Positions 1,495 to 23,712 of a stretch of 51,359 bases of DNA are shown one piece after another. The stretch's first letter is position 1; the number at the start of each line of letters is the position of its first letter. The notes beneath the pieces were generated by a model. It was not told the DNA's origin. It did not search any database and was given only the letters and a program-made list of their open reading frames with translations. Made by a program: the position numbers and the translations under genes. The stretch spans positions 1 to 51,359 of the IMG/VR virus record IMGVR_UViG_3300033405_000987. One strand, 5' to 3'. This DNA is from a virus. Lineage: Duplodnaviria; Caudoviricetes.

Positions 1495-4400
1495 TCACTG
1501 CACTCTCGCCTCAAATGCCCGGTTGGCCTGTTTTGCGATCCGGATTTCCCTGTCCCGGATGTCGTCCAATCGGGAACGCTTGTCATCGGCGTTCATGCTT
1601 GTGCTCTGCATGATCGCGGCCTGTTGCTGGTGGAGCTTCGTAAGCATCTGGCTGGCGGTCTGCATCATCTTCCAGCTCCCGGCCTCGGCTCGGTGGTCAT
1701 TCAACCAGTCTTGCGCACCCTGGCGATCACCCTGGCGATTCAGTGCCTGGAAGGTATTGTAGGCCTGCTCGGCCTGGCTGAAATTGTCGTGGAAGCGATC
1801 GGTGTCCACGCTGGACGCGCCGGAGGTGAACAGCGAACGCACGCCCATCATGTCCGCGAAATGTTCGGTGGGCGCGGCAGGCCCCCCGGCTAAGGCCCGG
1901 GTCGCGCCTCCCAAGGCGTCCATGATGATCCGGCCCGTGTTCGGTAGGCCTGTGTTCACGAAGTTCTGCATCATCTTGGGGCTGATTCCTACCACCGGAC
2001 CGAGCTTGTTCAGAGCCGGGTTGGTGTACTGGTTGCCCCGGTAGCCTGGCGCGAGCTTCTCGTCTCCGGCGTTCTCGATCGGCCTGCCGGTGAGAAAGGA
2101 CTTGTTGGCCCAGGCCTCCAGCGGAGCCTTGGCCGCCGTGGGCAGGATCGAGGTGCCAAAGGGGAAGCTCTTCTCGCCGATGGTCCAGAGGCTGGAGGTA
2201 AGCCCCTTCAGGTCGCCCGTGTTCATGTAGTCGACTGCCCGTGCCGGGACTGCTCCGGCCAGGATGCCCAACTGGAAGGGATAGGGCAACCGAAGCACCA
2301 CGGGATTTTTCGGATCATCGTTCAACACCACGTTCATGAACAGGTTCTTCTCCATGTCGGAAAGGCCCTGGTAGACCTGGGAATTCCGCTGGAGCGTGGC
2401 CAGAGCCACGGCCGGGAGGGTCAGGCTCAAAGCGGTCTTGAGCAGAGTCTCGCCCGGCCTGGTCCGCATGGTGCGGATCATCTTGTCCATGTCCTGCATG
2501 TTCGCGTTCCAAAACGCCGCCACCTTGTTGATCTCTCGGCCGTACAGGCCGGCGCGCGCGAAATTCAGGGCCGCGTCTTTGCCGGCATACGCCGCGGCTA
2601 CCGGGTCCTTCCCGTTCTGCCGGGCCTTCAGGTACTCGCCGAAGCGCGTGCCCTGGTCCATGTAGGTGGCCAGCTTTTCCATCATCTCGATGGGGGTCTT
2701 CACCCAGTCCATGACGCCTTTTTGATGGATGCCCAGGAACTTGTCGGCCTCGTTGGTCTTGCTATCCAGGTCCAGGGTATGGAAAAAACTTCCGCCGCCG
2801 CCGGCCGCCTTCCATTGATTGAAGTCCACGTCCTGGGGGTTCATCTTGAAGGCCGCACGAAGGAAGTCCAGACCCAGCACGTAGCCGTTTTCCGAATGGA
2901 TGTAGGCCAGCCATTGGGAGCGGATCAGGTGCCGGACCATGAATTCCGGAGAGAGCGTGGCCGCATAGCGGAAGGCCTTGGCGAACGGCCGCAGGAATTT
3001 GACCAGGAAGTTCGAGTCCGAGGGGGACAGGCCGTTGATGGCCTGCCTGTACCGCTCAGGCACGTCGAAGTATTTTTTCTTCCCGTCCACGAACTGGGTC
3101 AGGTAGTCGCTCGCCCGAGCCCGGGCCGGGTCGACCTGGACCTCCTTGAAGACGTTGTTCAGATCCGGGAGGTGTTCGCGCATGCCCACCAGGTCGGACA
3201 CAACACGATTCTGGTTTATGGCTTTGAGGGCTCGTTGCAGGTTGGCCATCGTGGCGGCCATGGGGTCGGCCTTCAGACGTTCGGACCCTTTCAGAGCCTT
3301 GATGATATCGCCGCCCGATCCCAGGGCCTGGGAGCGCTCCAAGTCGTCCATGACTCTCTGGAAAGGAAGGTATGAAGCGTGCTCAGGGGAGGCCATGATC
3401 TTGTCATAGCGGTCCTTGGAGATGATCCCGGCATCGGTCAAAGGCTTCAGGATAGCGTCATGGTTAAACTGGCGCAGGTTGTCCAGGAACTCATGGGCCG
3501 AGTCCGCTCCCGGGAGCTTGTTGAGGAAGTCCAGCCGCTGACGTGAATATTCAGGGTCGATGCCCGGAGGGTTGGCGCCCTTGAACAGATCCTTCTGGTC
3601 GCTAATCGCATCTTTGCAGGCCTTGATGGCTTCACGGTTCCCGGACGCCTGAGCGTCCGCCAGCATCCCCTGCAGGTCCGCCAAGCGTGCGGTGTGCTCC
3701 TCCGGAGTCATGTGCCGGTTGTTCCAGATGGAAAGATCGCGCTCGTGGCTGCCGATCTCCTTGGCCAAGGCATAGGTGCGCGGGTTTGAGCTGATGGGCT
3801 CAGAGGCTTCGCGCAAGGACTTGGTTCCCGGGATGGTCTGGGTAGAAGCCTCCCGATCCGGGTTACCCACGTCGGCCAGGCCCGTTCCGGTCGTCTGCCG
3901 GTCATACATGCCGTTGGTGCCGTCCAGACGGGAGAGGTGCTCGGTGACGTGATCAGCGAAGTCGGTCCCCGTTCCGTTGGCCTTGTCCACCGCCTTGGCC
4001 CGGTTGATGATCGGGGCGTACTTGTCCACCATGAGCTGATAAGCACGTTCCGCAGCGTCTTCACGCAGGCTCGCGTCGGTGAGGATACTGGGCTTTTTGA
4101 GGTCGTCTTTGGTGGCCCATCCGGCGCTCGTCTTGGGCCGGTTCACATCAATGATCCCTTCGTCTTCCAGGTCCTTCTGGGTGTAGCGTCGGTTGGTCGG
4201 CTCCTGTTGGATGGTGGGGCCTTCAACTTGAGCGGCTCGACGGTAAGCCGGGGCCTGCTCTACGCCAGGCACTCCAGATGCAACCCCCTGCTCTTCCGCG
4301 AACGCATCCCGCATGCCACCGATGAGCTCGCGCATCTCCGGCTCCGTGTACTTCATCGGACCCATGCCCAGCTTCTCGCGCACGCCGTTGACGATCCTGG

Positions 4401-7400
4401 CCACGAGCGCGGACACCTTGTCGTACCACCTGGGGGCGATGGTTTCGTTTTTGGTGGCTAACAGCTCGGAGACGATGCCGCGCCGACCCTGCGGGGTGCT
4501 TATATCGTAGTCCTGGGAGTAGCCATGGTTGTTGAGAAGCCTGTCAATCTCGGGCCGATAGTCTCGGAAGATGCGGTCCTTGATGTTGTTCAGGCTGATC
4601 TGGGCTTCACGCACGCCCATCTGCATGCCCAATCGACGGCCGTAGGCCTCTTCTCCTGGGTGGATGATCTCATGGGCGATGGACTGGGCGAAGTCGTCAG
4701 GACTTTTGGTGTTCTCCAGGTTAAAATAGAGCTTTCCATTCTGGTAGAAGGATGGAGCTTGCTCCCCGCCGGTGCCGCGCACCGCGCCCTGGACGTCCTG
4801 CGGCATCGTGTCCAGGCTCTCATGGACCTCGGCGATACGCGAAAGCCCGGAGTGATCGAGAGCCGCTTGAGCGTCAGAGAGGGACAAGCCAGGTGTGCTG
4901 GCAGTTTCTCCGGGACGCCGGTACATTATGACGCCCTTGTCCGTCTCCTTGGTCTTCACCGTGTCGAAAAACTTATCGAAGGCGGCATTGATGGCCTCGC
5001 GCTCAGGGCCTTCCGGGTACACCCCGGGGATATCCGAATGCGTGCTATGAACGAGGTACTGGCTTGTGCGGTCGAGGTCAGGGTTTTCAATCCGGTCCTG
5101 AATGTAGGATTCGAAGGCGCGAGCTGCTTTCTCGTGGGGGCGAGCCCAGTAGTCTCCAAGCTGCTGCGCGCTTCTGGAGAAGTCGGTGCGAGGCCCTCCC
5201 GAGGTCCGCTCCAGCGCAGATATCACGTCTCCCCAGGCTTGCACCATCTCGGGGCGCATTTTGGATGTCTGGACCCAGTCCTTCGTCTCGCGGCTCCAGT
5301 CGTTGAAAAATTGACCATGGGAGGCGTAGGGTCTCCCCTTATTGCGGTCCCCAGACAAACGCCCGAAATGGTCATCCATCGCATGGAACCATTCATGCGC
5401 GAGCGCGCCGGCACCACGGGTCTTGGTCAGGTTCATGGCCACTTTGACCGGCTCGTAATGTGCCGAGGCGTGGCCACCACCCCGCGCCCCAAAAGCGAAC
5501 CCCAGAGCTCCATCCAGGGAAAGGGCCTTTGGTGGAACGTTCAGAGCCTGGGAGAGGTCCATGAGCGCGTCGTACGCATGGTTGAGAGAGTCCTGACGAT
5601 CAGACTGATTCAGCCATTTGCCGAACTCTCCACCGCGAAATCCGAAGGTATCCTTAAACTCAAAGGGCGTGACATCGCGCCCTTCACGGTAATCCACCCC
5701 GGTACGCTGCACGTTGTCCAGCATTGGTCGCTTGTAACGCTCAACAGGAGAGCCTTCGGACTCTCCCCGCACCTGCTTTTGCGGCCACCCTGATATCTCC
5801 ACTTTACGCTGAGCGTGGACGAAGTCGTAATTGCTGACCTGAAGTTTCCGGACGAACTTATTTCCGCCCAGTTCCGTGACCATTTCCTTCCCTTCGGCGG
5901 ACCAGCGATCAAGGGACGGTCGACTCTTGTCATACTCGGCCTGGGTGAAAACTCTGTCGAACAGACTACGAATATCGTCAGCCGTTTTTACGCTGGACAG
6001 GATATCCCGGACGCGCTCTATGGACCGGATATAAATTTCCTGAGCTTCGCGGGCATCTTTGAGTCGCAGCCTCTGCGGAGCAGCAGGAATGGCGTCGCGG
6101 ATTCCCTTGACGAGGAGCGCCACGTGCGCTGGAACGCCATCCTCGACCATCTTGTCGTACTTGATGGGCGGCCAGATGTTGTTCTTGACGGTGTAAGCCT
6201 CACGCTCACGGTCGGTCATGTCCGCGAGGTCGGAGGTGGTCAGGCGGGATTGGGCGCGGTCGTAGCGAGAGCCTCCAATCTCCTCGCCGAACTTCATGCC
6301 TATTTCGGCTTTATCGGCGGGAGGAGAGGCAGGCGCGGAAGAATCTAGTAGTGTTTGTTCCGTAGCGGGTTCGGCGGAACGTCCTTGTCCCCGATCAGGA
6401 CCTTGGTCGCTATCCTCACCCCTTCGCGTTTGCGGGCGGTCAGACGCTTCAGTGCCTCGATCTGCTCTGGCGTTGCGGATGTCGTCTTCGGTGAGTCGGT
6501 CTTGGCGCTCATGCGTTATCCCTGGAGCCGATTCTTCTGGGCGTTCAACCTGTCCGCGTTCTTGAATACCGGGGCTATTCGGTATTCCCGAAGAAGGCCG
6601 TTCATCGCCCGCAGCTTCTCTCTCGGAGCCCCGCGCTCCCTTCCCTGACAGTACCGATCCCAGAACGTCAGGAGTTCTTTCGTCGAGTAGCCCCTGTAGG
6701 TTTCGGGCAAGTTCTGATTTGGCATCGGGTCCTCTTGTTTGGCGAAGCTGATCTAAGATAACATTGACTTCCCCCTTGGACAAGACCTTCGCCAGATCCT
6801 TGGCTCGGATTGGTATCTGCGCCAGCTTCAGAGCAGTCTGGAGCTTGGAGACAACCTGAGGTTCGGCATCCAGCCGGGCGTCTCCCATAAGACCCGCCAC
6901 GGTGTCCACGTGAATACCGGCCTCGTTGAGGGCGCGGACAAAGGCCTTTGCCGAGGCCCCCGTAGTAAACACATCCTCCGTGACAACCACATTCTTACCC
7001 TGGGAGTCCCTCTTCAGGGCTTGCACATCAGTTGGAGCATACTTTCGGATGGCAAAAGGACGGTCCTGAGGCGTAATCGTTTTAATTGGGGCCTCATGCT
7101 CTGGGTCAAAATGATCGCGTCCATCGCTAAATGTCCCACCAAGCTCTTGAGCCAGATGCTTCCCTAGGGCGTTTGGAAGTTCATTCTTGCCCGTCGTACT
7201 TGGTACCGACACGAACAAGGTTTCCTTGTTGGGGTCCAGCTTGTCCGTGAGGGCCTTCGTCTTGTCGTCTGTCCATGTCGAACGGATCACCCGGTCCGCG
7301 GCTTCCTGATCGCCCGCTTTCGCCGCCTCCCAGTCGGAGCTGTTTTGGAGCTGCCGATCAGTGAATCCTTTGGCCGTGACGCCTTTCTCATTTCCCAGAC

Positions 7401-9579
7401 CCACAACATTATCCGGGGTCTTCTCTTCCATCCCCGCCAGAACGTCGTAAACCGTGTCCACGTTGTGCTTGCCGGAGTCGATGAGCTGCTCGGCGCGTTC
7501 GCGCATCGCGTCGTAGCCCTGGGGCTGCACGCTGGCCAGCTCCTGCTCCACGGCCGCCCGCGCTTTTGGGCTACCGACATCCGGGGCTTCGTCTTTCACC
7601 TCGCGCCATCCCCACCGCTTCCCGGACTCGTCCAGCGGCACAGCCTCCACATTCTGGCCACGCTTGATCCGGCCGGCCACCTGAAGGTTGATGGAGTTCT
7701 TGGTGTACGGCGTTCCGTCCGCCCTCACGTTGACGCCATCGGGAATCTGGCTGACGTCTTTCGAGTTTTGGCTGACATCTCCCGCAGGGGCTACACTACC
7801 CGCGTCGGGTCCCCCTCCGAGTCCGTCCCCGAGTTCGGGAGCGTTTCCCCCGATCCCGTCAGGCTGGCCTGCTCCAGTGCCGACGTCCTGTCCAGATTCG
7901 GCGCGTCCACGTTCGGGATTGGCATCGAGGGCGCGGATAATGTCGTTGGCGACTCCTGGTCCGCCGGAGGCGAGACGGGACTCGACATCGTCGGCGATGG
8001 ATTGTTTGTCGGCGAACCTGGAGGAGGATTCGGGGGCAGTCCCGCCGACCCCGCTATTGATCCGATCATCCGGTTGCGTTTCAAGCCCGAGAGCTTGGCT
8101 ATATTCGGGTATCGCGTCTTGAACTGTTGGGGGGACATTCCCAGTCGGTGCGGCATTGATGTCTCCTGTGGTAAGTGCATCGCCTCCAACCGGAGCGGGC
8201 ATCGCGGGTGAATCCGCCAGGCGCACGGGAAGGCGGTCATTGCGCATGGTGTCCGGGACCAGGTCGAAGTCCTGGCCGGCCGGCAGCATGGGCACCCCAC
8301 GACCATCCGAGAGCATGATGGGGGTTGGAAGCAGGGAACGGTCACCCCCATCGGTCTGCGGCAGAGGCATCCTGTCGCCACCGTCTGTTGGAACGGGATC
8401 GCCCTGAGGGAGGGCCAGGGCCGGATGTGTTCCAGACAGGGCAAGAATCTTCTGGGTCATGGCGTCCGCTGCGCCCTGGATGTCTCCCTGCTGGGCCTTG
8501 TCTTCAAAGTCCTGGCCCATCCGGTCGACGAGGTCGTTGCGAAAGGCGTTCTTGTCCGCGATGTCGGCGTGAATGTCTCCGGCTGTCCAAGGGGACTTGA
8601 GTCCCTCCGCGATACCTCCGAAAGCTGCGCCCTGACCGAAAGCTGTTCCCGCGCCCTGTGTAATCGGGATGGAAGGATCGTAAGCCTGCCGGGCCGTGTT
8701 TTCGCCCATCGTCTGAGCGGCCATGGTGTTGCCGCCCTCGATGGCCCCGGCTGCCACCTTCCCCAGTACCTGCGGCAGAACCTTTTCGGGGAGAGCTCCC
8801 AAGATCGGGCCGAGAATTGTCTCGGTGAGGGGGCCGGCCGCCATCGCAGCGCCGCCCCCCAGGATAGCGGCCTTGTTGCTCACGCCTTCGGCAAAGTCCT
8901 GGCGAGCCTGCGCGCGTCGAGCCAAGTCGTCCATGTCGTCCGGGAGATTCCAATAAGCTTGCTGATAGCCTGGCGCGTTGACGATCTGGTCCTCGGGCAG
9001 CTTCATTACTTGTTGCTTGACCGTGTGGGCGCTCGCGGCTGCCATGGCGGCTCCCGTCACCCCAAGGGCTGCTCCCTCGCTGGCCCCTCCAGTGAACGGC
9101 GCCAGCGCCACGCCCGCAGCGTGTGGGAGAAGAAAAGGAGCGGCCCCGGCCGCCGCGTTCAGGGTATCGACCACGGGGTGATCCCAGAAGCTTGCGTCCG
9201 GACTTTCAACCTGAGCTTGGAAGTTCTGGGGAGCGTTGGCGCGAAGGCTGTCCGCCGACTGGCCCATGGAGTTGGCGAAGTCGCCGCCGAAGCCCAGGTT
9301 GTTTTGGGAGATGTCTCCGAGGCCGGCGAGGACGTCCGCCCCGCTGGCCAGGGCCGTCCGTCCGACACCGCTGGCAATATCGCCCACGGACAGCGGAGCG
9401 CTTGCGGCTTGTTGCTGGGCGACTTGGTCCTGCAACTGCTGAGTTTGTTGCGGGTCAGAGGGCAACGTGCTCTGGAATGCCGCGAGGTAATTCTCGAAAG
9501 ATCCGTACTTATCCTGGAGCGCAGGGAGCGCCTCGTACATGCTCTTGGGATCGAAATCCGGGAGATCGTTGAGGTCCAT
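1495..9579 (-). CDS. giant ejection/internal virion polyvalent protein (PRTase, LPD5/LPD1-like, HExxH, LPD38-like domains)
   Basis: 2694 aa, last late gene; VVVTEDVFTTGAS (PRPP-binding loop), FGFRGGEFGKW...AHEWFH...ARAFE...YPEGPERE (LPD1-like), AHEIIH, C-terminal LPYPFQLG. Confidence 0.85.
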   Translation of the reverse strand: MDLNDLPDFDPKSMYEALPALQDKYGSFENYLAAFQSTLPSDPQQTQQLQDQVAQQQAASAPLSVGDIASGVGRTALASGADVLAGLGDISQNNLGFGGDFANSMGQSADSLRANAPQNFQAQVESPDASFWDHPVVDTLNAAAGAAPFLLPHAAGVALAPFTGGASEGAALGVTGAAMAAASAHTVKQQVMKLPEDQIVNAPGYQQAYWNLPDDMDDLARRAQARQDFAEGVSNKAAILGGGAAMAAGPLTETILGPILGALPEKVLPQVLGKVAAGAIEGGNTMAAQTMGENTARQAYDPSIPITQGAGTAFGQGAAFGGIAEGLKSPWTAGDIHADIADKNAFRNDLVDRMGQDFEDKAQQGDIQGAADAMTQKILALSGTHPALALPQGDPVPTDGGDRMPLPQTDGGDRSLLPTPIMLSDGRGVPMLPAGQDFDLVPDTMRNDRLPVRLADSPAMPAPVGGDALTTGDINAAPTGNVPPTVQDAIPEYSQALGLETQPDDRINSGVGGTAPESSSRFADKQSIADDVESRLASGGPGVANDIIRALDANPERGRAESGQDVGTGAGQPDGIGGNAPELGDGLGGGPDAGSVAPAGDVSQNSKDVSQIPDGVNVRADGTPYTKNSINLQVAGRIKRGQNVEAVPLDESGKRWGWREVKDEAPDVGSPKARAAVEQELASVQPQGYDAMRERAEQLIDSGKHNVDTVYDVLAGMEEKTPDNVVGLGNEKGVTAKGFTDRQLQNSSDWEAAKAGDQEAADRVIRSTWTDDKTKALTDKLDPNKETLFVSVPSTTGKNELPNALGKHLAQELGGTFSDGRDHFDPEHEAPIKTITPQDRPFAIRKYAPTDVQALKRDSQGKNVVVTEDVFTTGASAKAFVRALNEAGIHVDTVAGLMGDARLDAEPQVVSKLQTALKLAQIPIRAKDLAKVLSKGEVNVILDQLRQTRGPDAKSELARNLQGLLDERTPDVLGSVLSGKGARGSEREAAGDERPSSGIPNSPGIQERGQVERPEESAPGITHERQDRLTEDDIRNARADRGTEASDRPQTRRGEDSDQGPDRGQGRSAEPATEQTLLDSSAPASPPADKAEIGMKFGEEIGGSRYDRAQSRLTTSDLADMTDREREAYTVKNNIWPPIKYDKMVEDGVPAHVALLVKGIRDAIPAAPQRLRLKDAREAQEIYIRSIERVRDILSSVKTADDIRSLFDRVFTQAEYDKSRPSLDRWSAEGKEMVTELGGNKFVRKLQVSNYDFVHAQRKVEISGWPQKQVRGESEGSPVERYKRPMLDNVQRTGVDYREGRDVTPFEFKDTFGFRGGEFGKWLNQSDRQDSLNHAYDALMDLSQALNVPPKALSLDGALGFAFGARGGGHASAHYEPVKVAMNLTKTRGAGALAHEWFHAMDDHFGRLSGDRNKGRPYASHGQFFNDWSRETKDWVQTSKMRPEMVQAWGDVISALERTSGGPRTDFSRSAQQLGDYWARPHEKAARAFESYIQDRIENPDLDRTSQYLVHSTHSDIPGVYPEGPEREAINAAFDKFFDTVKTKETDKGVIMYRRPGETASTPGLSLSDAQAALDHSGLSRIAEVHESLDTMPQDVQGAVRGTGGEQAPSFYQNGKLYFNLENTKSPDDFAQSIAHEIIHPGEEAYGRRLGMQMGVREAQISLNNIKDRIFRDYRPEIDRLLNNHGYSQDYDISTPQGRRGIVSELLATKNETIAPRWYDKVSALVARIVNGVREKLGMGPMKYTEPEMRELIGGMRDAFAEEQGVASGVPGVEQAPAYRRAAQVEGPTIQQEPTNRRYTQKDLEDEGIIDVNRPKTSAGWATKDDLKKPSILTDASLREDAAERAYQLMVDKYAPIINRAKAVDKANGTGTDFADHVTEHLSRLDGTNGMYDRQTTGTGLADVGNPDREASTQTIPGTKSLREASEPISSNPRTYALAKEIGSHERDLSIWNNRHMTPEEHTARLADLQGMLADAQASGNREAIKACKDAISDQKDLFKGANPPGIDPEYSRQRLDFLNKLPGADSAHEFLDNLRQFNHDAILKPLTDAGIISKDRYDKIMASPEHASYLPFQRVMDDLERSQALGSGGDIIKALKGSERLKADPMAATMANLQRALKAINQNRVVSDLVGMREHLPDLNNVFKEVQVDPARARASDYLTQFVDGKKKYFDVPERYRQAINGLSPSDSNFLVKFLRPFAKAFRYAATLSPEFMVRHLIRSQWLAYIHSENGYVLGLDFLRAAFKMNPQDVDFNQWKAAGGGGSFFHTLDLDSKTNEADKFLGIHQKGVMDWVKTPIEMMEKLATYMDQGTRFGEYLKARQNGKDPVAAAYAGKDAALNFARAGLYGREINKVAAFWNANMQDMDKMIRTMRTRPGETLLKTALSLTLPAVALATLQRNSQVYQGLSDMEKNLFMNVVLNDDPKNPVVLRLPYPFQLGILAGAVPARAVDYMNTGDLKGLTSSLWTIGEKSFPFGTSILPTAAKAPLEAWANKSFLTGRPIENAGDEKLAPGYRGNQYTNPALNKLGPVVGISPKMMQNFVNTGLPNTGRIIMDALGGATRALAGGPAAPTEHFADMMGVRSLFTSGASSVDTDRFHDNFSQAEQAYNTFQALNRQGDRQGAQDWLNDHRAEAGSWKMMQTASQMLTKLHQQQAAIMQSTSMNADDKRSRLDDIRDREIRIAKQANRAFEARVQ

Positions 9580-9588
9580 CGTCGCCCC

Positions 9589-12357
9589 TTAATGCTGGTT
9601 GCGGGACTGGTTGTAGGTGCTGATGACCTGGCTCAACGGGATGCCCCCGCTACGCCGGGCGAAGAGTGCGTCCATGGCGGCGCGGTCTTTCGGGCTCGCG
9701 CTGGAGTACCGGGTCATGAGTTCCTGCATGGCCTGGGCTTGTTGGGTCGCCTGGGTTGAGGTGGGGGTCGGCGCCTGCTGTCGCTGCTGCGCGGCCAGGG
9801 CCGCATTGCCGTAGGGTTCGGCCGTCATGGCGATGTCATTGGGGACGCTCACGTTGTTGCCTTTGAGTTGCGCCGGGGGCTGCGTATCTACGGTAGGGAC
9901 CTGAGCAGCCAACAGGCCGTGAATCCCTCTCGCGGCCGAATTTATGCCAGAGACCAACGCACGGCCGCCGGATGTCCCCTGATCGGGAGACATGGCCACC
10001 ACCCCGGGAGTGACGTTTTCCCCCGCAAGGTTGGCGTCGTTGGGGATTGTTGCGGGACCGCTCGCGGGCTTGGGCACAACGGGTTGTGGGTTATCAATGG
10101 GAGCGCCGAGGCCCTCGGCAGGATTGGTGGTCTGCGCATTCAGGTTCGGGACGCCGGATGTCACGGGGGCCCGCGGCGCGTCATTGGTCGCGTTCACACT
10201 GCCGGGTGTGCCCGCGCTCGCGGCCTTGAGTTGCTGGGCGGCCACGGCCGCCGGTCCGTAGCTGGCAACCTCCTGCGGAGTCATCGCGTTGATGGCCTGG
10301 GCCGATGTGCCGCCTTTGCCCAGGATGTACTGATAGATGGAGCCACCAAGGAGCTGGTCCTTGTTCTTCTGGTAGAACGCGCCCGGGTTCTGGATCGCGC
10401 CCGGGGCCTGCCCGATGACGTTACCCTTGGCGTCCTTCTGGGGGGCTTGGGGCTTGGGGAGCGTATCGAACTGCGCCCCTACCGTGGCTGCGACGTCGCC
10501 AGCGTCCCGGGCGTCCACGTAAATTCCGCGTTTGTTGAGCTGCTCCACCGTGTTCATCACGGCGCTGGCCGCCGCGATATTGTTCTTGGCCTCGGTCGAG
10601 GTTGAAGGGGCGTTGGGATCAGGTATGACAAAGCCGCTGGGCATGTCCGCCAGCTTTTCCTGCGGGTTGTATTTCAAGCCATACTGCGCAGCCACGGCGG
10701 CCGCCACGGGCTGCAACTGGCTCAAGGTGAACTTGTTCTGAGCCTCGGATATTTTCGCGTTGTCTTCGGCGGTTTTGGTATCCTGGCTTTGCTTGAGGAG
10801 GGCATTTTGGGCGTCCGCATCCTGTTGCGACATCTGCGGTGCGGGAACAGCGCCCAGGGTGTGCTTCTCGTATACGCGACCTTGAGCGTCCGTAACGTAC
10901 CCCAGGAGCGGAGACGTGGTGATGGCCTTCTGTGTCTCCAGGTTGGTCTGGATGTTCGCCCGGGTATCGGCCCGGTTATCCATCGTGGTTCGGTGCTGTT
11001 CGGTGTCCGCCTGCTTCGCCGCCTGCGCCCTCATCTGGGCCGCCCGGTAGGCGTCGGAGACCAAACTCCGAGCGTCCGCGTTCAGCTTTGCCAACGCGGC
11101 ATTCTTTTGCGCAGGAAGCCCCGGGGATGCTTGGATGCGTTGCTGCTCGCCCTGCTTCCACTGCTGGACCTGAGCCTCGTATCCTTGGAGATCCTTGACG
11201 TTCGGCACCATAAGGGCCTGTGCTGCTCCAGGCCCCTTTGCCTGTGCACCGCCTGTAGTGCCCCCGACCCCCGGCTGATCGGAGGCGATCCCCGTGCTGT
11301 TTTCCGCCAGGCCAGCACCGGAGCCGTCCGTGTCGCTGGAATTCGCCATCGCCAAGAGATCACCGCGCTCCTGCGAGAACCTGTTGCTCAAAGAGTCCGC
11401 GAGTTGTGGACTGCTTGGAAAATATTTGAGCGAACCATCCGCGTTCTTCGCGCCGCGTTCGTCCATCACCGCGTTGACGAAATCATTGGGGGAGAGGGGC
11501 GTGTCATCGTCCACGCTGGACAGGGCGTTGTCGATGACCTTCTGGGCGCCCGCAGGTCCGTTCTGATTCCCCAAGCTGAAGATGAGTGACCGCACGCCTT
11601 GGTTGGTGGTGTCCACCTGGGGATAGTTTTTCTCCACGTAGGCCATGACCGGCTGGACGTTGTTCTGGTTCGTCCAGTCGAGTTGGGCCTTTGTGTAGTT
11701 CGGGTCCTGGGCCACCTGGGCCAAGCTCGGATCATTCGGACTGCTGGGGACGTCCAGGTCGTAATTGTTCTTGGCGAACTTCTGGAAACTTCCCCAGTTG
11801 GTGGGCGTGATCTGGACTGGGCCAGTCGAGCCGTCCGGAGCGGTGGCCGAGGGGTTGCCGCCGGATTCGTATTTGAGAGCCACCTGAGCGTCTTTGGCGG
11901 TCTGATCGGAACTGTCGTCGCCGTTATCGGCGGTTTGTGTGGAGTCGTCACCGCTCCCGCCATCGGCGTAGTCATCCAGGGGCGTCGAGGGAGAGGCATC
12001 CGAGAAGCCGTCCAACGGATCCGCAGTGGGGTCGTCAGGATCGTAGGGAAGCCCACCACCAGCATCGGACGTGGAAGTGGACGCGGGGGACACTGTTGCC
12101 GGGCTGACTGCGGACGACCCTGGGTCGGTGGTGGACACCCCGGATCCTGCTCCAAAGACTGGAGGCGGCGAACTATACCCCCCGAGCCCCGTCCCCTGAA
12201 TCTGCATTTGCAGGTACTGGTTACGGGTGTTCATGAGGGAGGCCTGGGTGGCCATCATGGCGGTTTGTTTCTCTAACTCTTGCTGCTTCAGCGCCATCTG
12301 CTGACTCGCCAAAAGGCTGTCCGCTACGCCGCCTGCAAAGACTCCTCCGAAGTTCAT
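9589..12357 (-). CDS. ejection protein with lysozyme-like (VgrG3-C-like muramidase) domain
   Basis: 922 aa, A/Q/G-rich; KYESGG...NQNG...DERG...YFPSS...NRFSQE motif set at ~11345-11875. Confidence 0.75.
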   Translation of the reverse strand: MNFGGVFAGGVADSLLASQQMALKQQELEKQTAMMATQASLMNTRNQYLQMQIQGTGLGGYSSPPPVFGAGSGVSTTDPGSSAVSPATVSPASTSTSDAGGGLPYDPDDPTADPLDGFSDASPSTPLDDYADGGSGDDSTQTADNGDDSSDQTAKDAQVALKYESGGNPSATAPDGSTGPVQITPTNWGSFQKFAKNNYDLDVPSSPNDPSLAQVAQDPNYTKAQLDWTNQNNVQPVMAYVEKNYPQVDTTNQGVRSLIFSLGNQNGPAGAQKVIDNALSSVDDDTPLSPNDFVNAVMDERGAKNADGSLKYFPSSPQLADSLSNRFSQERGDLLAMANSSDTDGSGAGLAENSTGIASDQPGVGGTTGGAQAKGPGAAQALMVPNVKDLQGYEAQVQQWKQGEQQRIQASPGLPAQKNAALAKLNADARSLVSDAYRAAQMRAQAAKQADTEQHRTTMDNRADTRANIQTNLETQKAITTSPLLGYVTDAQGRVYEKHTLGAVPAPQMSQQDADAQNALLKQSQDTKTAEDNAKISEAQNKFTLSQLQPVAAAVAAQYGLKYNPQEKLADMPSGFVIPDPNAPSTSTEAKNNIAAASAVMNTVEQLNKRGIYVDARDAGDVAATVGAQFDTLPKPQAPQKDAKGNVIGQAPGAIQNPGAFYQKNKDQLLGGSIYQYILGKGGTSAQAINAMTPQEVASYGPAAVAAQQLKAASAGTPGSVNATNDAPRAPVTSGVPNLNAQTTNPAEGLGAPIDNPQPVVPKPASGPATIPNDANLAGENVTPGVVAMSPDQGTSGGRALVSGINSAARGIHGLLAAQVPTVDTQPPAQLKGNNVSVPNDIAMTAEPYGNAALAAQQRQQAPTPTSTQATQQAQAMQELMTRYSSASPKDRAAMDALFARRSGGIPLSQVISTYNQSRNQH

Positions 12358-12397: not shown

Positions 12398-13699
12398 CTA
12401 CAGATCGTAATCTTCATCGCCTGGCTCGGCGTCCCCGCCGCCGCTGGAACTTCCGCTGCTGCTGAAGATCTTCGACAAAGAGCCACCGTTGTTGCCATTG
12501 CCCATGAGCGATGTAAGGCCCAAACCGGTGAGCTTTCCCGATCCGGAGGCGTTCGCCTCATTAGCCTGCATGTCCTGGCCATTGAGCGTGTCGTACTGCG
12601 ACCCGTAATTGCCCAGAACGTTGAACAGAGGCTGCTCTTCGCTCTCTCCGAGGTTAGCTTCGGTTGAGTAGTTCGGCATCGTCGGGTTGGCGTTCCAACT
12701 CTCCAGGCTGCTGTCTCCGCTGGTGGAGGTGTCCTGCGGGAGCATCATCGAGGTGGCCTCTGTCGGGTTGAAGTTGGACAGGGAGCTGAAGATTCCCATG
12801 CCCGCATCTTCCGGTCCTTTGGAGAGCTGCGTGTTGATGTTGGACAGCGTGCTGTCCATCGTGTTCACGCCGGAGTTCAGTTCGTTTGTCCCGATCTGCT
12901 GGTCCGCAATATTCTGGTTGGTGGCCGTCTGGAGGCCCTGGGTCTCGGCTCCGGCCCTGGACAGCGCGGCGTTGGTGGCGAGATCGATATCCGCGTTCTG
13001 GGCCGCTCCGGAGTCCGGGCTGATACCCAAGCTCGCGTTCTGCATGTTCAGAGCCGTCTGCTGACCCTGGAATGAGTTGTCCACATCCGCGCCGGCACGA
13101 GCCGCGAACTGCTCCGGGTTGGAGTATGTATTCATCGCCGTCTCGCCAGCGACCTGGGAGGCGGTCAACGCGGTCTGCGCAGCGGGCTCCAGAACACTCC
13201 CCATCTCGCCGATCGTCTTAGCCTGCTCTGGCTGGTACAGACTCATGTCAGTGTTCAGCGCGTTGCTGGTGTCCTGGGTGGCCTGTTCCTTCTCGGACGC
13301 GGTGTTGTTGGCCAGGGCGATCTGGTTGTTCAGGTAGCCCAGGGCGTTCTGACCGGTGGCCGCTGCCTCGTCCGCGTAGGGCGTGTATGCTGCGGCTTCG
13401 CTGGAGATCTCGTTGTTTTGTCCGGTCGCGGCGTTCTCCAGGGAGTTGTCCACGTTACCCTGCTCCCCCGTGTACATCCCGAGCTGCTGGCCGTAGGTAC
13501 CCATGGCCTGATCGAGGAGGTCCTGGTACTGCGTCAGATCCTGCTCTCCGGACAGATAGGAGTCGATTCCCAGATTGGTGGCCGCGCTCGTGTTGGTGGA
13601 CGCTGTCGAGCCTGCAGAGTTGTCGCTACTGCTCCCGCTGTTTATGGCTCCCATCACGAGCGAACCCGCACCGACAGCCGCGCCTGCTATTGTGCCCAT
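12398..13699 (-). CDS. ejection/internal virion protein
   Basis: 433 aa, A/G/Q/N/S-rich with hydrophobic N-terminus MGTIAGAAVGAG; RBS GGAGG; position in podovirus core-protein cluster. Confidence 0.75.
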   Translation of the reverse strand: MGTIAGAAVGAGSLVMGAINSGSSSDNSAGSTASTNTSAATNLGIDSYLSGEQDLTQYQDLLDQAMGTYGQQLGMYTGEQGNVDNSLENAATGQNNEISSEAAAYTPYADEAAATGQNALGYLNNQIALANNTASEKEQATQDTSNALNTDMSLYQPEQAKTIGEMGSVLEPAAQTALTASQVAGETAMNTYSNPEQFAARAGADVDNSFQGQQTALNMQNASLGISPDSGAAQNADIDLATNAALSRAGAETQGLQTATNQNIADQQIGTNELNSGVNTMDSTLSNINTQLSKGPEDAGMGIFSSLSNFNPTEATSMMLPQDTSTSGDSSLESWNANPTMPNYSTEANLGESEEQPLFNVLGNYGSQYDTLNGQDMQANEANASGSGKLTGLGLTSLMGNGNNGGSLSKIFSSSGSSSGGGDAEPGDEDYDL

Positions 13700-14706
13700 G
13701 CCCTATCCTCCAAATTCTCATATCGAAAGGTGATGCACGTTCCTGGGAGTGCGGCAGCCAGGTCCCTTGTCTTGCGCTGATGATCCGGCGTTTCTCTTGG
13801 AGTCCCGGTCATGAAGAACGCCACAATATCCACGCCATGGCGCTCAAGGGCGCCCACGGTGCGCCAGAGCTCGGCGTCGGTAAGATTCTTTCGGAGGACC
13901 TGGTTGCGGTAGGTTTCGTCTCCTGCCTCCACGCCGAAAGCGCAGGAATTCATGCCCCGGTCGATGAGCCACTCCAGGGACTCCGCATCAATGTCGGCCC
14001 GAATGTAGGCGAAGAAGGGATGACGGAAGTCGCCCCAGGAGTCCTTCCAGGCGGTGTTTGCGTAGGGAAGCCCCGCATCACCGATGAAGAAAACGTCCGG
14101 CTTGTAGGTTGAGGCCAGCCACGCGAGGTCTTCACCCACCCTGGTACGGATGCGCACCCCGCGTGGCTGGTGGCGGATTTGGCAGAAGGTACAGGCTCCG
14201 TTGCAGCCCCGGCTCGACTGGTATGGGAGCACCTTCTTGCCGGCGAGGAAAGGTAAGCCACGGTCAAAAGGGATGTCTCGGAATAGCTCGTAGTCTGGCA
14301 ACGGCAGCGCGTGGATGTCCCGGCATACCTGGGGGCTGTCGAAGATTTGTGTCTCACCGTTTAGCAGAAAATCCGGTAATGTCTCACCGTCGCCCCGGCA
14401 GACGAAATCTACTGCAGGGTCTACCGGATGGCCCAAACCGGCCCAGACGCCGCCCAGGAGCACCGTGTACCCCAGGGCTTTGGCCGCGCGAATGAAGGGG
14501 ACGCACAGCTTGTAATCGTGAACGGTGACGCAGGAGAAGCCCACCACCTGCGGCCGTTCTCGCTGGAGCTGCGCCGCAAAGTTCCGAATGTCCCCCAGTA
14601 TGCACAAGTCCACCTCAATGCCTCGGGCCTTGCACAGCGCGGATAAGAGGGCCACGCCGTGGTTGTAGGAGACGTACAGGGGCCAGAAGGCGAAAATGAT
14701 CTTCAT
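13687..14706 (-). CDS. cobalamin-binding radical SAM protein (class B methyltransferase-like)
   Basis: N-terminal B12-binding fold motifs (VVGFS, LLGG, CRGDGE, LPLPD); SSRG-CNGACTFC (CxxxCxxC); GVEAG; FMTGTPRET. Confidence 0.9.
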   Translation of the reverse strand: MKIIFAFWPLYVSYNHGVALLSALCKARGIEVDLCILGDIRNFAAQLQRERPQVVGFSCVTVHDYKLCVPFIRAAKALGYTVLLGGVWAGLGHPVDPAVDFVCRGDGETLPDFLLNGETQIFDSPQVCRDIHALPLPDYELFRDIPFDRGLPFLAGKKVLPYQSSRGCNGACTFCQIRHQPRGVRIRTRVGEDLAWLASTYKPDVFFIGDAGLPYANTAWKDSWGDFRHPFFAYIRADIDAESLEWLIDRGMNSCAFGVEAGDETYRNQVLRKNLTDAELWRTVGALERHGVDIVAFFMTGTPRETPDHQRKTRDLAAALPGTCITFRYENLEDRAWAQ

Positions 14707-15164
14707 AGCACTTCCGTGAATGCGGCCTCGTAGGGCCTGAGTCCGCGGCGCTCCAAGGCTCGGCCCAGGGAGGCGTCTTTATGCTGGGTGCTCAGGAGTA
14801 TTACTTGGGCCCCCCGCTTCCGAGCCCAGGCCCGCATGTGGTCAAGGAGACGCAAAAACCAGCGGACCTTAGCCGGCCCATCCGGGAATGACGGGCGCAT
14901 GTGCCACATCAGCTCTATGGCCATCACGGTGTTCCGATTCAGGTGGTATCGGTGGAGTGCCATGACGCAGGCCCCCGCTATTTCCCCGTCGATTTCCACC
15001 ACGGACAGGAGCGCGTCCGGGTTCAACAACATCCGGACGAGCAGCTCCCGCACGGTGTCTTTGTCGATCCCCAGGCCATGCGCGCTCCAGGGCATAGAGG
15101 CGTCACATTCCAGACAGAAGGCCAGGAGGCCCGGAAGGTCATCACATGTGGCCGCGCGGATCAT
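14703..15164 (-). CDS. GNAT acetyl/acyltransferase
   Basis: Real start MIRAATCDDL at 15164 (TAATG overlap with upstream stop); ELMWHMRP, WARKRGA, LERRGL GNAT pattern. Confidence 0.85.
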   Translation of the reverse strand: MIRAATCDDLPGLLAFCLECDASMPWSAHGLGIDKDTVRELLVRMLLNPDALLSVVEIDGEIAGACVMALHRYHLNRNTVMAIELMWHMRPSFPDGPAKVRWFLRLLDHMRAWARKRGAQVILLSTQHKDASLGRALERRGLRPYEAAFTEVL

Positions 15165-17026
15165 TACTGCCCCACCACGGATGACAGCTCTTGGGTGGAA
15201 CCGGCTATGGCCATGCGCTTGACCGGCACATTTCCGGACACCCCCAGGGTGACCTCGCGGCCCACATAGCCGGAAGGCAGAGGAAATGGATCGCTGCTGG
15301 TGACGGCGCCGGAATACTGGACGGTGCCGTCCACGGTGAGCGTGAAGTTCAAGATGTTCAGATCGGACGCGCCGGCAGGGGCACGGACGAAGTTGTTGAG
15401 GCCGTAAGCCTTGGTTCCGAAGGCGTTCAAGCCCCACGCGCCCCCAGCCAGATTTGGAAGCATAGCCGTGTTGGCCGCAATCTGGGCAGCCTGTACGGCC
15501 AGGGCCGCCGTCAGTTCCGCTTGGGTCATGCCTCCAGAGGTATCGGCCAGGACCTGGCCGAAGGCAAAGTTCTGAGGCCAGACCTCGAATATTTTGCTGG
15601 TCCAGGTGTAAAGCAGCCTGGTGCTGGCCCCTTCCCATTCCTGGAGGACGTTGGTCCCGTTCAGATCGCACGCAAAGTAGAGCTGGTCCGCACTCGGCTG
15701 CACAAAGGCCGCCGTGGGGTACATGGAGAGTTCGGTGAGTTTGGCCTCGGGCTCCAGCAGGTCCAGGACGATTGCCCCCCCCTGGGTAATGCCGTTCACC
15801 ACCCCGGTCTTATAGAACCCGTAGTAGCGCCGGTCCATGATGACCGCGTGCATCTCCTGAGGGTTGTAGGCCACCCAGTCATCGCGAGTGAACACGTCGT
15901 GAGTGATGAGCGAGCCCGGCGTGATGAACTCATTCAAGGCGTTGGTGATCATGTACACGCCGTCCGGAGATGCGAAAGCGACACCCATCTCACAGGTGAT
16001 GATGCTGCGCTTGGACACGCACGGCTGGCGTTCCGGGAACTTGGTCTTCTGCAACACGGACGGGCTCGCACCCTCGAAAATGTAGGGGTATCCGTCCGTG
16101 AGCACCACCACCATGTCCCAGAATACGGCGAGGCCGACGATCTGCTGCGGAATGGTGTAGTTGTAGGCTTCAGGCCATGCGTGACACTGGTAGGGCACCG
16201 AGCACCAGATGCCGTTGCCGGAGAAGCCCACCAGGAAACCGCCAGGGTGCGAGACAAGGCCCTGGAGGTTGGACGGGGGCGGCAGCCACTCCTGGGAAGG
16301 CATGAAGACGTCGTTGTCCACCAGGGTCGTGTCTGGGACCAGGTCGGCGTAGGAGGTGGTCCCGATGGGGATGTCAGCCACCCACAGCCATGTATTGGTC
16401 GTGTTTCCCGCCTCCGAGCGGTAAATCCTGCAGGTGACTATGTTGGAGTAGCCGGTGGGCGCGGCGGACGGGAAGCCGGTCAGGTCCACTTCAGAGCCGG
16501 ACAAACTCTCCACCTGATTGGAGATGGTGGCCACCGGGGGGCCTTCCTCTCCCCAGACGGTCACGAACGTGTAGAGGTAGATCACATACCGGGCCATGCC
16601 CGAACCTCCCACGCCGGTAGCGCTAGCCTTGAGCGGGGTCGTCGGCCTGGGGACGCCCAGGATGTAGGAGCTGTTCGGGTAGATATTCGGGTCACCCGGC
16701 ACGGACACGAGGCTCAAGTTGGTTACCCGGGGCACATCCGTGGCGCTGGTGAAGTAGAGCCTTTGGAGGGGGTCGGTGGCCAAGGGGTTCAGAACCACGT
16801 CCACGGCCTGGTTCCAGGTCAGCCAGTACGTGTTGTTGTACAGATACAAGGTCTGAATATCGCCGGTTAGAGGAAAGGTCTGGAGGGTTTCCGGCTGGTA
16901 GAACGGCTTGATCTCCCCGGAGTACAGGTTGACGTTCTCGGCGACCGTGGCCTGATTCGGAGCCAACAGGTTCGGCGAGGTGCGGGGGGCAAGCCCCCCA
17001 AACCCTTTGACGTTGATAGCTGCCAT
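15164..17026 (-). CDS. tail nozzle / packaged-DNA stabilization protein
   Basis: 620 aa; FGGLAPR start, YTFVTVWGEEG, RIYRS, PHAWP-like, FASPDG beta-propeller motifs typical of podovirus tail tubular proteins. Confidence 0.8.
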   Translation of the reverse strand: MAAINVKGFGGLAPRTSPNLLAPNQATVAENVNLYSGEIKPFYQPETLQTFPLTGDIQTLYLYNNTYWLTWNQAVDVVLNPLATDPLQRLYFTSATDVPRVTNLSLVSVPGDPNIYPNSSYILGVPRPTTPLKASATGVGGSGMARYVIYLYTFVTVWGEEGPPVATISNQVESLSGSEVDLTGFPSAAPTGYSNIVTCRIYRSEAGNTTNTWLWVADIPIGTTSYADLVPDTTLVDNDVFMPSQEWLPPPSNLQGLVSHPGGFLVGFSGNGIWCSVPYQCHAWPEAYNYTIPQQIVGLAVFWDMVVVLTDGYPYIFEGASPSVLQKTKFPERQPCVSKRSIITCEMGVAFASPDGVYMITNALNEFITPGSLITHDVFTRDDWVAYNPQEMHAVIMDRRYYGFYKTGVVNGITQGGAIVLDLLEPEAKLTELSMYPTAAFVQPSADQLYFACDLNGTNVLQEWEGASTRLLYTWTSKIFEVWPQNFAFGQVLADTSGGMTQAELTAALAVQAAQIAANTAMLPNLAGGAWGLNAFGTKAYGLNNFVRAPAGASDLNILNFTLTVDGTVQYSGAVTSSDPFPLPSGYVGREVTLGVSGNVPVKRMAIAGSTQELSSVVGQ

Positions 17027-23521: not shown

Positions 23522-23712
23522 CGGTAGAGGAAGAAGTGAAGGATTTTTTCGATTTTAGCGGAGAGGAAACGTGCGTGCCGCCTGGGCATGAAAGCGCACA
23601 GGCGGCAATACACGTGGAGCGCGTTGAAGTGGTGTTGCCGCGCTAGAGGAGGCACGGCGGTAAAGGATCCATCTGGATGAAATTGGCCAGGGCCTTGAGT
23701 CGGTTTATCCAT
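23518..23712 (-). CDS. small hypothetical protein (start uncertain)
   Basis: QHHFNALHVYCRL motif, fills lysin-scaffold gap; 5' part overlaps lysin in another frame. Confidence 0.4.
   Translation of the reverse strand: MDKPTQGPGQFHPDGSFTAVPPLARQHHFNALHVYCRLCAFMPRRHARFLSAKIEKILHFFLYR

Follow-up and report, generated by a model that had tools for sequence, protein, structure and literature searches.

What an acyltransferase and a B12-binding radical SAM enzyme do among the virion-protein genes of a phage is the question raised by the Caudoviricetes record IMGVR_UViG_3300033405_000987 (IMG/VR; the whole stretch analysed, 51,359 nucleotides, is called the window). The GNAT-family acyltransferase gene and the radical SAM (rSAM) gene are likely a late-expressed tailoring module; they immediately precede the gene for what is likely the first ejection protein.

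Gene order and coding properties

All genes of the module and its neighbours are on the minus strand (Table 1). The coupled gene chain of the preliminary description was read from the sequence as given there: the 620-aa gene is joined to the GNAT gene by a TAATG junction, the GNAT gene to the rSAM gene by an ATGA overlap, and the rSAM gene overlaps the 433-aa gene by 13 nt, with GGAGGA 6 nt ahead of the ATG of the latter. Codon usage is phage-like, again in agreement: GC3 of the two module genes is 0.78 and 0.74 (0.73–0.88 in the 12 other window genes), and their CAI values of 0.63 and 0.62 are the lowest among 14 window genes, yet close to the others (0.64–0.80). The product of the 620-aa gene is named 'internal virion protein' by PHROG 511 (profile match); 'nozzle' is a label from position.

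Table 1. Features of the module and adjacent genes (positions in the window).
Feature	Positions	Strand	Basis
620-aa virion/tail protein, probable nozzle	15164..17026	-	phrog_511 E 7e-125
153-aa GNAT-family acyltransferase, phrog_1249 type	14703..15164	-	phrog_1249 E 1e-12
339-aa compact B12-binding radical SAM enzyme	13687..14706	-	PF02310 + PF04055 + structure model
CxxxCxxC cluster motif, C168-C175 of rSAM	14182..14205	-	invariant in 115/115 aligned homologues
GGAGGA ribosome-binding site for 433-aa gene, within rSAM 3' end	13706..13711	-	sequence
Codons 2-20 of 433-aa protein, predicted substrate peptide, uncharged, Gly/Ala/Val/Ile/Thr-rich	13640..13696	-	sequence; 48/50 family clusters alike
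433-aa likely first ejection protein (P22 gp7 / T7 gp14 position)	12398..13699	-	position; phrog_8003 E 8e-5
922-aa second ejection protein, VgrG3-like C-terminal domain match	9589..12357	-	PF21277 E 3e-8
2694-aa third ejection protein, LPD1 + LPD38 domains	1495..9579	-	domain matches

The 433-aa gene likely encodes the first ejection protein because of its position, first and smallest in a three-gene block (433, 922 and 2694 aa in order), and a weak match to phrog_8003. The 433-aa protein did not match the P22 gp7-like phrog_598 ('DNA ejection'), a profile matched by 7 of 13 sampled positional equivalents. The layout of the block agrees with Table 1 of PMC8954989.

The radical SAM enzyme

The enzyme consists of an N-terminal Rossmann domain followed by a partial TIM barrel, with no C-terminal domain (structure model pLDDT 96.6). 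The B12-binding region and CxxxCxxC motif reported in the preliminary description are present: PF02310 is matched with 39.4 bits (cut-off 32.1) and PF04055 with 40.8 bits (cut-off 29.5), and C168, C172 and C175 are invariant. A B12-binding Rossmann domain together with CX3CX2C in a partial TIM barrel places the enzyme, by sequence and fold, in class B of radical SAM enzymes. Residues 1–120 resemble corrinoid proteins in the fold search (Z 11–14), and cobalamin binding is predicted.

Fold comparisons were made by VIA-align and BFVD. Best matches of the whole model were AprD4 (Z 28.1), OxsB (25.9), MgmA/QCMT (25.6) and TsrM (23.9), a mixture of methylases and non-methylases. With a dehydratase (AprD4) at the top and a non-methylase (OxsB) also among the best, fold alone does not tell which reaction is catalysed.

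Judged by profile scores, the enzyme is a member of a discrete phage family (about 340 aa) unnamed by any curated model. Full-length members score 281–519 bits and other B12-rSAMs at most 165 bits; catalytic motifs are invariant among members at 44–74% identity. When named B12-rSAM families were compared (TIGR03975 RiPP methylase, TIGR04014 MgmA, ApyD, HpnJ, BchE, AprD4), the window enzyme was below the NCBIfam cut-off of every one (best 41 bits, cut-offs 251–750), as were five other family members.

Synteny of the family and the GNAT partner

Relatives were surveyed in 50 dereplicated clusters from 72 loci, the GNAT being evaluable in 45. A GNAT is adjacent or fused to the rSAM in 44 of these 45 (it lies upstream in 38 and downstream in 5 and is fused in 1; the remaining cluster has none), a count made with GNAT HMMs partly built from the surveyed loci and checked independently by PHROG matches of 18 sampled neighbour GNATs (all 18 to PHROG 1249, 4470 or 651). 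In 48/50 clusters the rSAM is followed by an ORF whose N-terminus is uncharged and of the Gly/Ala/Val/Ile/Thr kind. The same context recurs with each of three GNAT families, in either gene order, with several ejection-protein clusters and in eight fusions of rSAM and GNAT. Tail architectures that are unrelated, that of the window and that of the P22-like locus L002, both have the rSAM next to the ejection gene. Of 51 distant viral B12-rSAM loci taken as negative control, 50, with long enzymes, gave neither a GNAT nor an ejection match. The one exception is a compact 356-aa enzyme. The rSAM of locus L119, 74% identical to that of the window, has neither a GNAT nor an ejection-type ORF after it. 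By these counts the gene arrangement far exceeds chance, and the recurrence of a GNAT-rSAM-ejection triad, raised in the preliminary description, is strongly borne out.

The window GNAT matches the phrog_1249 acetyltransferase profile; no Pfam match was obtained at E 0.01, and PF00583 is matched by relatives in its own PHROG. The GNAT most often paired with the rSAM is similar to spermidine and RimJ/RimL acetyltransferases. Among the fusions, P0127 bears DUF2824/phrog_651 (E 4-5e-5). The extension of the seven others was unmatched by two GNAT profiles (hhalign), by Pfam and by PHROG, and no stand-alone homologue was obtained; a lead in Atlas was weak (0.78). The fold of its single modelled member, GNAT-like in the fold search, suggests that all seven extensions are GNATs. 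The GNAT is predicted to N-acylate the ejection protein. In marine phages a GNAT of the same type is found among small MG-starting proteins, upstream of the portal.

The ejection-protein N-terminus and its controls

On the basis of their bodies, the 44 neighbouring ejection proteins fall into eight BLAST clusters (30, 6, 2, 2 and four singletons), so that the N-terminus is the constant feature. Val, Ile or Thr occurs within residues 3–8 in 44/44 rSAM-linked peptides, and no target residue is conserved by position across them. Phe/Trp/Leu/Pro residues are fewer in rSAM-linked peptides, 0.77 per 20 aa against 2.45 in GNAT-only peptides (p 8e-4, ignoring shared ancestry). Residue 2 is G/A/S in 47/48 rSAM loci (exception L082, Pro) and in 9/11 GNAT-only controls (p 0.04, with the same neglect of ancestry); it appears to be mostly a GNAT signature. 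Its earlier candidacy as an rSAM signature (41/41 vs 16/32; 44/44 vs 8/18) was weakened once phrog_21390, at best a putative GNAT, had been taken out of the GNAT-only group and L082 with its Pro2 had been recovered.

For controls, 240 loci were fetched, 118 passed filters and 96 remained after dereplication, all of one ejection family (PGYQFR motif). The family rSAM is present in 0/96. A hydrophobic N-terminus is present in 77/96 and was rejected as a mark of rSAM phages. The N-terminus of the 433-aa protein is hydrophobic and Gly-initiated as first described, but is not special in this respect.

In rSAM-free relatives the slot before the ejection gene is occupied by hydroxylase, cupin or SET-domain enzymes, and most slot enzymes coincide with an N-terminal motif of their own: Val2 in 7/8 controls with an Asp/Asn-hydroxylase+GNAT cassette (8/96), Pro2 in 8/8 with phrog_21390, Ser2 in 5/6 with SET+cupin, and an aromatic motif in 21/24 of the cupin class (also in 12/20 loci without a detected enzyme). 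A second compact B12-rSAM family also fills the slot (Ser2 in 16/16, mostly MS[VI][VI]SG); in 9/25 of its loci the cassette is joined by a Tes/GDGT-MAS-like rSAM, a pairing that points to lipid-chain chemistry. Each B12-rSAM family forms one clade and a joint clade was not rejected (p-AU 0.50); the two may share one origin or may have arisen independently. Related phages that have other modifying enzymes in this slot strengthen the case for the ejection-protein N-terminus as the target.

Proposed activity of the module and alternatives

In the reading favoured here, with confidence evenly balanced, the ejection protein loses its Met and is then N-acylated by the GNAT, while the rSAM adds C-methyl groups to residues in its N-terminal peptide. 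Such tailoring, first put forward in the preliminary description, is partly supported, by synteny, fusions, negative controls and slot enzymes; the N-terminus is less distinctive than first implied, and the lack of the family in the controls narrows the claimed tie to cobalamin and anoxia. The enzymes would be co-translated with the substrate gene, to which they are visibly coupled. Host methionine aminopeptidase removes Met1 when Gly, Ala or Ser follows; cleavage here would expose this residue, which the GNAT would then N-acylate. As in the class to which its fold and motifs assign the rSAM, a [4Fe-4S] cluster would split SAM, a 5'-deoxyadenosyl radical would take H and methylcobalamin would give CH3. 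Targets would be unactivated carbons in the first ~20 uncharged residues: either C-beta of Val/Ile/Thr, as with MpcBC and the polytheonamide enzymes, or C-alpha of Ala/Gly in a QCMT-like reaction yielding alpha-methyl-Ala or D-Ala. The capped, methylated tip would gain hydrophobicity, rigidity and protease resistance on entering the host outer membrane. The module would operate solely in low-oxygen hosts holding cobalamin; CobS is present in 3/5 host genomes (all five incomplete), which was counted against this reading. Since the rSAM is rare (0/96 controls), it is an accessory refinement, missing from most podoviruses, and not a general maturation step. The dependence of virion maturation on cobalamin and anoxia, as initially claimed, could hold at most for carrier phages.

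More tentatively, podoviruses may mature a membrane-piercing ejection tip with interchangeable natural-product-type enzymes; in phages of anaerobes a B12 enzyme would then turn part of a virion protein into a peptaibol- or polytheonamide-like segment bearing an N-acyl group and several C-methyl groups, so that infectivity of progeny would depend on host cobalamin. The enzyme set seen in the slot comprises acyltransferase, hydroxylase, cupin, SET methylase, two B12-radical SAM families and a Tes-like coupler.

It is unlikely that the rSAM works instead on the GNAT-installed acyl cap, making a lipophilic anchor by iterative methylation or branching of an N-acetyl or fatty acyl group. The GNAT link is the tightest feature of the loci (44/45 plus the eight fusions), target residues are not positionally conserved, the Tes/GDGT-MAS-like partner of the second family fits, and the iterative methylase CysS is among the profile matches; however, the peptides of rSAM and GNAT-only loci differ in composition, a difference that an enzyme acting on the cap alone would not have to produce, and the family pairs with three or four GNAT types.

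Quite unlikely is a chemistry other than methylation on the same N-terminal peptide, such as epimerisation, cross-linking or an oxygen-free counterpart of hydroxylation by 2-oxoglutarate enzymes. Enzymes of this two-domain build (B12-binding plus rSAM) that have been characterised are mostly methylases, and the hydroxylase loci carry another motif (Val2), whereas AprD4 and OxsB rank at or above methylases in the fold search and Asp/Asn-hydroxylase+GNAT cassettes occupy the same slot. QCMT is able to epimerise (PMC13469106).

Another substrate (a different virion protein, a host envelope lipid or LPS, or a DNA base), the gene merely riding the late operon, is improbable: whichever way the genes are ordered, and even where tail architectures are unrelated, the rSAM is a neighbour of the ejection gene, and no nucleotide-modification genes were seen among its immediate neighbours, although L119 is without GNAT and ejection-type neighbours and the position of the marine-phage GNATs suggests that GNATs may serve several virion proteins. 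That the rSAM is a non-functional or incidental insert, for which its low CAI and absence from most related phages could speak, is scarcely credible given invariant catalytic motifs over 44–74% identity, conserved position and fusions.

Distribution and significance

Carriers are many uncultured short-tailed phages; the family is present in 0/50,697 records of isolated phages, in 1/401 genomes from a single host phylum (the seed being that one) and in 6 loci of a genome collection (pattern-limited search). A host housekeeping role was rejected on the latter two counts. A GNAT + B12-rSAM + ejection-protein system was not found in the open-access main texts searched, and a word search of two 2026 ejection preprints gave no acyl or acetyl terms. 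T7 gp14 is resolved from residue 25 onward only, after ejection (PMC11784390); on the favoured reading, the N-termini of ejection proteins, often unmodelled in cryo-EM, may carry hidden modifications. If the favoured reading is true, radical C-C chemistry of antibiotics and methanogen enzymes enters virion assembly, the long-unexplained GNAT gene ahead of podovirus ejection genes acquires a testable substrate, and enzymology and peptide engineering gain B12-rSAM peptide methylases that are very small and leader-free, together with naturally occurring fusions and matched substrate peptides. Such genes would otherwise be tallied as auxiliary metabolic genes.

Comparison with known systems

PoyB and PoyC are peptide C-methyltransferases of polytheonamide. 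A precedent for B12-rSAM peptide C-methylation is also MpcBC of clavusporin (bioRxiv 10.1101/2024.01.23.576971). These systems resemble the module in B12-binding and rSAM domains, a Val/Ile/Thr-rich hydrophobic peptide encoded alongside, and methylation that adds hydrophobicity. The window enzyme differs from RiPP methylases in its length of about 340 aa without C-terminal or RRE-like domain (TIGR03975: 33 bits, cut-off 282), and it would act on the N-terminus of a structural protein of 170–440 aa. RiPP-like tailoring, as initially proposed, does not apply in the strict sense: the next gene encodes a 433-aa protein and no short leader precursor, no adjacent protease or transporter and no RRE in or beside the rSAM were seen at the locus, two domains filling the 339-aa model and the neighbours being GNAT and virion proteins.

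MgmA/QCMT (PDB 9ccb), third-best fold match (Z 25.6, rmsd 2.9, 303 aligned, 21% identity), likewise has a protein substrate; it differs in being archaeal, 450 aa long and directed at an internal Gln (window rSAM vs TIGR04014: 29 bits, cut-off 360). QCMT is the methyl-coenzyme M reductase glutamine C-alpha methyltransferase, can methylate Ala and convert Gly to D-Ala in peptides, and has homologues that vary in cobalamin binding (PMC13469106). AprD4 diol dehydratase (6fd2) and OxsB (5ul2), the best fold matches, differ in small-molecule substrates, no methyl transfer, longer chains and 15–16% identity.

The podovirus GNAT before the first ejection gene (P22 gp14/DUF2824; T7 gp13 is the equivalent) has the same position and PHROGs (1249, 4470, 651). 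No substrate for it was found in the open-access main texts searched. The GNAT loci of P22 and of isolates Pam1 and ICBM2, where it is also present, differ in being without rSAM. Mycobacteriophages glycosylate their own virion proteins with phage-encoded enzymes. The module would resemble them in that phage enzymes act on the phage's own virion proteins; there, sugars are added to surface proteins, whereas here radical C-C chemistry is predicted on an internal ejection protein.

Gene cassette of the window

The 51,359-base record is probably that of a temperate podovirus. Its identified genes include those for terminase, an SU10-like portal, capsid and two adaptors, together with a cI-like repressor. 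The genes of the 620-aa protein, the GNAT (predicted acyltransferase), the B12-binding radical SAM enzyme (rSAM) and the 433-aa protein are coupled as the preliminary description had them, correctly in junctions, Pfam domains and codon usage, the last consistent with phage, toward the low end. "Nozzle" and "ejection protein" are labels by position for the window's own genes. The VgrG3-like domain of the 922-aa protein is probably wall-degrading. The His and Cys motifs of the 183-aa ORF may be those of a permuted papain-like amidase.

Coordinates of the cassette, further window features and the additional rSAM of the second family
Feature	Position	Strand	Remarks
620-aa virion protein	15164-17026	-	TAATG junction to GNAT gene
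153-aa GNAT	14703-15164	-	phrog_1249, E 1e-12; ATGA junction to rSAM gene
339-aa rSAM	13687-14706	-	B12-binding and Radical_SAM Pfam cut-offs passed; 13-nt overlap with 433-aa gene
433-aa protein	12398-13699	-	precedes 922-aa and 2694-aa genes
922-aa protein	9589-12357	-	PF21277 T6SS VgrG3-like C-terminal domain match, residues 201-331
2694-aa protein	1495-9579	-	LPD1, LPD38; weak phosphoribosyltransferase-like stretch (phrog_32468, E 0.005)
Glycoside hydrolase 108 endolysin	23643-24287		
183-aa ORF	24553-25104	-	no family match; adjoins the endolysin
cI-like repressor domain	43329-44234	-	PF07022; consistent with temperate phage
Tes/TrsS-like rSAM	L459:4087-5040, L462:5119-6096		also L465, L468, L471-L473, L475

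The compact B12-rSAM family

These enzymes form a real and conserved phage family, apparently not described before, within a probable module for tailoring a virion protein. The 137 homologues are nearly always 330-350 aa long, those aligned being 44-74% identical. When 1.84 billion representatives are searched by profile, full-length members score 281-519 bits, against at most 165 for other B12-rSAMs. Scored against the NCBIfam models, the family comes nowhere near a cut-off. Invariant motif residues across 115 sequences are C168, C172, C175, G85-G86, E260 and R267. The AlphaFold model (pLDDT 96.6) comprises a Rossmann domain and a partial TIM barrel, with no further C-terminal part; best fold matches are AprD4 (Z 28.1), OxsB (25.9), MgmA/QCMT (25.6) and TsrM (23.9). 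Domain layout and modelled fold appear to settle the enzyme class and leave the reaction unfixed.

The window's rSAM protein occurs a second time, on a contig of 257,917 bases. No family match was found among 50,697 phage records; in a single host phylum, 401 genomes yielded one carrier, the seed itself. Named host records are MAGs of Nitrospirota (2), Desulfuromonadales (2) and Proteobacteria (2). CobS is present in 3 of 5 tested host genomes. For the window's own host, anoxia would follow from the names of these MAGs, hosts of family members, and from the chemistry.

Conserved neighbourhood

The 72 loci at ≥36% identity form 50 clusters at 90%, 45 of them evaluable for GNAT. In 38 of these 45 the GNAT gene is upstream of the rSAM gene and in 5 it is downstream; one cluster has the two fused and one has no GNAT. 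In 48/50 clusters the ORF after the rSAM, or after its GNAT, opens with an uncharged stretch rich in G/A/V/I/T/S. The triad for which the preliminary description proposed a survey is recurrent. Exceptions are L119 and L110 (rearranged). The L119 rSAM (L119:1115-2122; 74% identical to the window's), with neither GNAT nor ejection-type gene after it, may lie where a prophage remnant ends. L110:41-1542 runs from an rSAM end through a hydrophobic ejection-type start fused to GNAT into a second rSAM start, likely a misassembly or tandem rearrangement.

All 18 sampled neighbour GNATs match PHROG 1249, 4470 or 651 (the last P22 gp14-like, DUF2824). Thirteen sampled downstream proteins match phrog_598 "DNA ejection" (7), phrog_611 (1) or nothing (5); the bodies of 44 such downstream proteins split into 8 BLAST clusters, and tail genes vary from the window's type to P22-like. 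Protein P0127 is an rSAM fused to DUF2824. Seven other members bear a 110-aa extension; the one that was folded (L112, pLDDT 83) resembles phage proteins, the named ones N-acetyltransferases (TM 0.5-0.65), and profile comparison gave no GNAT signal for the extension. Distant viral B12-rSAM loci, with enzymes nearly all 440-770 aa long, served as negative control: 50 of the 51 lack a GNAT or ejection match in the fetched flanks.

A second compact B12-rSAM family (~355 aa; seen in L047, L339 and L452-L476) occupies the same slot before the ejection gene, with GNATs of phrog_1249. Among 25 loci, 24 have a GNAT and 23 an ejection ORF; the remaining loci are truncated. Its ejection ORFs have Ser2 in 16/16 distinct cases, mostly MS[VI][VI]SG. 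Nine loci add a further rSAM (315-335 aa; CPxC...CPxHG ribbon at the N-terminus), most similar to the tetraether lipid synthase Tes/TrsS, at 62-82 bits and well under cut-off (PDB 7tol, E 5e-16).

The slot in rSAM-free relatives

Control viral loci were fetched by ejection-protein motif (240 fetched, 118 past filters, 96 dereplicated). The window's rSAM family is absent from all 96. The hydrophobic N-terminus is a general feature, and no mark particular to rSAM phages, since 77/96 controls carry it. The slot is interchangeable among enzymes: none detected 36, cupin 24, GNAT alone 11, Asp/Asn-beta-hydroxylase with GNAT 8, phrog_21390 8, SET-cupin fusion 6, and one each of cupin with GNAT, second B12-rSAM with GNAT, and a small unassigned ORF.

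N-terminal motifs track several slot types. Val2 occurs in 7/8 hydroxylase loci (PF05118 and GNAT, then MVAAA-starting ejection proteins: L213, L233, L234, L254, L260, L285, L354, L368). Pro2, mostly MPxP, occurs in 8/8 phrog_21390 loci (L218, L349, L356, L372, L379, L380, L385, L405), for whose slot protein no PDB relative was found. Ser2 occurs in 5/6 SET loci (L215, L220, L241, L246, L361, L366). The cupin aromatic motif is non-specific (21/24 cupin loci, e.g. L223, L280, vs 12/20 enzyme-free loci). The cupin and cupin-SET proteins fall in PHROG 12032 and 24280, labelled "short tail fiber" or "adhesin"; these labels look like misannotation, because Cupin_2 matches are weak and SET matches clear.

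In AT-rich loci (L135-L206) the stretch from terminase to portal holds a phrog_4470-type GNAT together with proteins of 70-165 aa that start Met-Gly, which suggests that small virion proteins are acylated on an N-terminal Gly. In rSAM-free 4470-type loci (L134, L153, L159-L165, L177, L198, L200, L203) ejection proteins begin MGK, or with a short leader then a Gly-rich motif, without hydrophobic segment.

Predicted substrate and reaction

In 47/48 family clusters the second residue is Gly, Ala or Ser. This fits Met removal and N-acylation and is mostly a GNAT signature, because 9/11 GNAT-only controls share it (rSAM-linked vs GNAT-only, p 0.04, 44-peptide set, Pro case outside; this and the following statistics ignore shared ancestry). 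Per 20 residues, rSAM-linked peptides contain less Phe/Trp/Leu/Pro than GNAT-only ones (0.77 vs 2.45, p 8e-4). Ala is more frequent in them (6.4 vs 5.0, p 0.015), and the content of Val/Ile/Thr shows no significant difference (p 0.10). Not one position is fixed in the rSAM-linked peptides.

The target is quite probably the ejection-protein N-terminus or its cap, all such readings pooled. In the preferred reading, held at roughly even chances, the GNAT would N-acylate the N-terminus, and the rSAM, using cobalamin, would then C-methylate residues of the N-terminal peptide. There are precedents among B12-rSAMs: MpcBC methylates the beta-carbons of four kinds of residue in hydrophobic peptides rich in Val/Ile/Thr/Pro (bioRxiv 10.1101/2024.01.23.576971), and QCMT forms C-alpha-methyl-Ala, and D-Ala from Gly (PMC13469106). 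It is unlikely that the rSAM modifies the acyl cap instead, slightly less likely that it performs non-methylating chemistry on the same peptide, and a shade less likely again that it has a different substrate; an rSAM without function is highly improbable. N-acylation and C-methylation could plausibly bring a benefit by making the tip more hydrophobic, more rigid and resistant to proteases, because the channel through the outer membrane is built by the first ejection protein (PMC8954989; bioRxiv 10.64898/2026.09.03.749273).

Comparison with known systems

In the open literature searched, neither a B12-rSAM within an operon of phage structural genes nor a modified ejection protein was described. 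Papers covered include PMC9728967, PMC13331322 and PMC11784390; a word search of bioRxiv 10.64898/2026.05.18.726046 gave no match. The window's rSAM falls below every named B12-rSAM family cut-off. Unlike RiPP systems in the strict sense, the module has no leader, RRE, protease or export. What likeness there is to the "RiPP-like tailoring" first proposed lies in the working mode, the rSAM being predicted to act in the manner of a RiPP C-methyltransferase.
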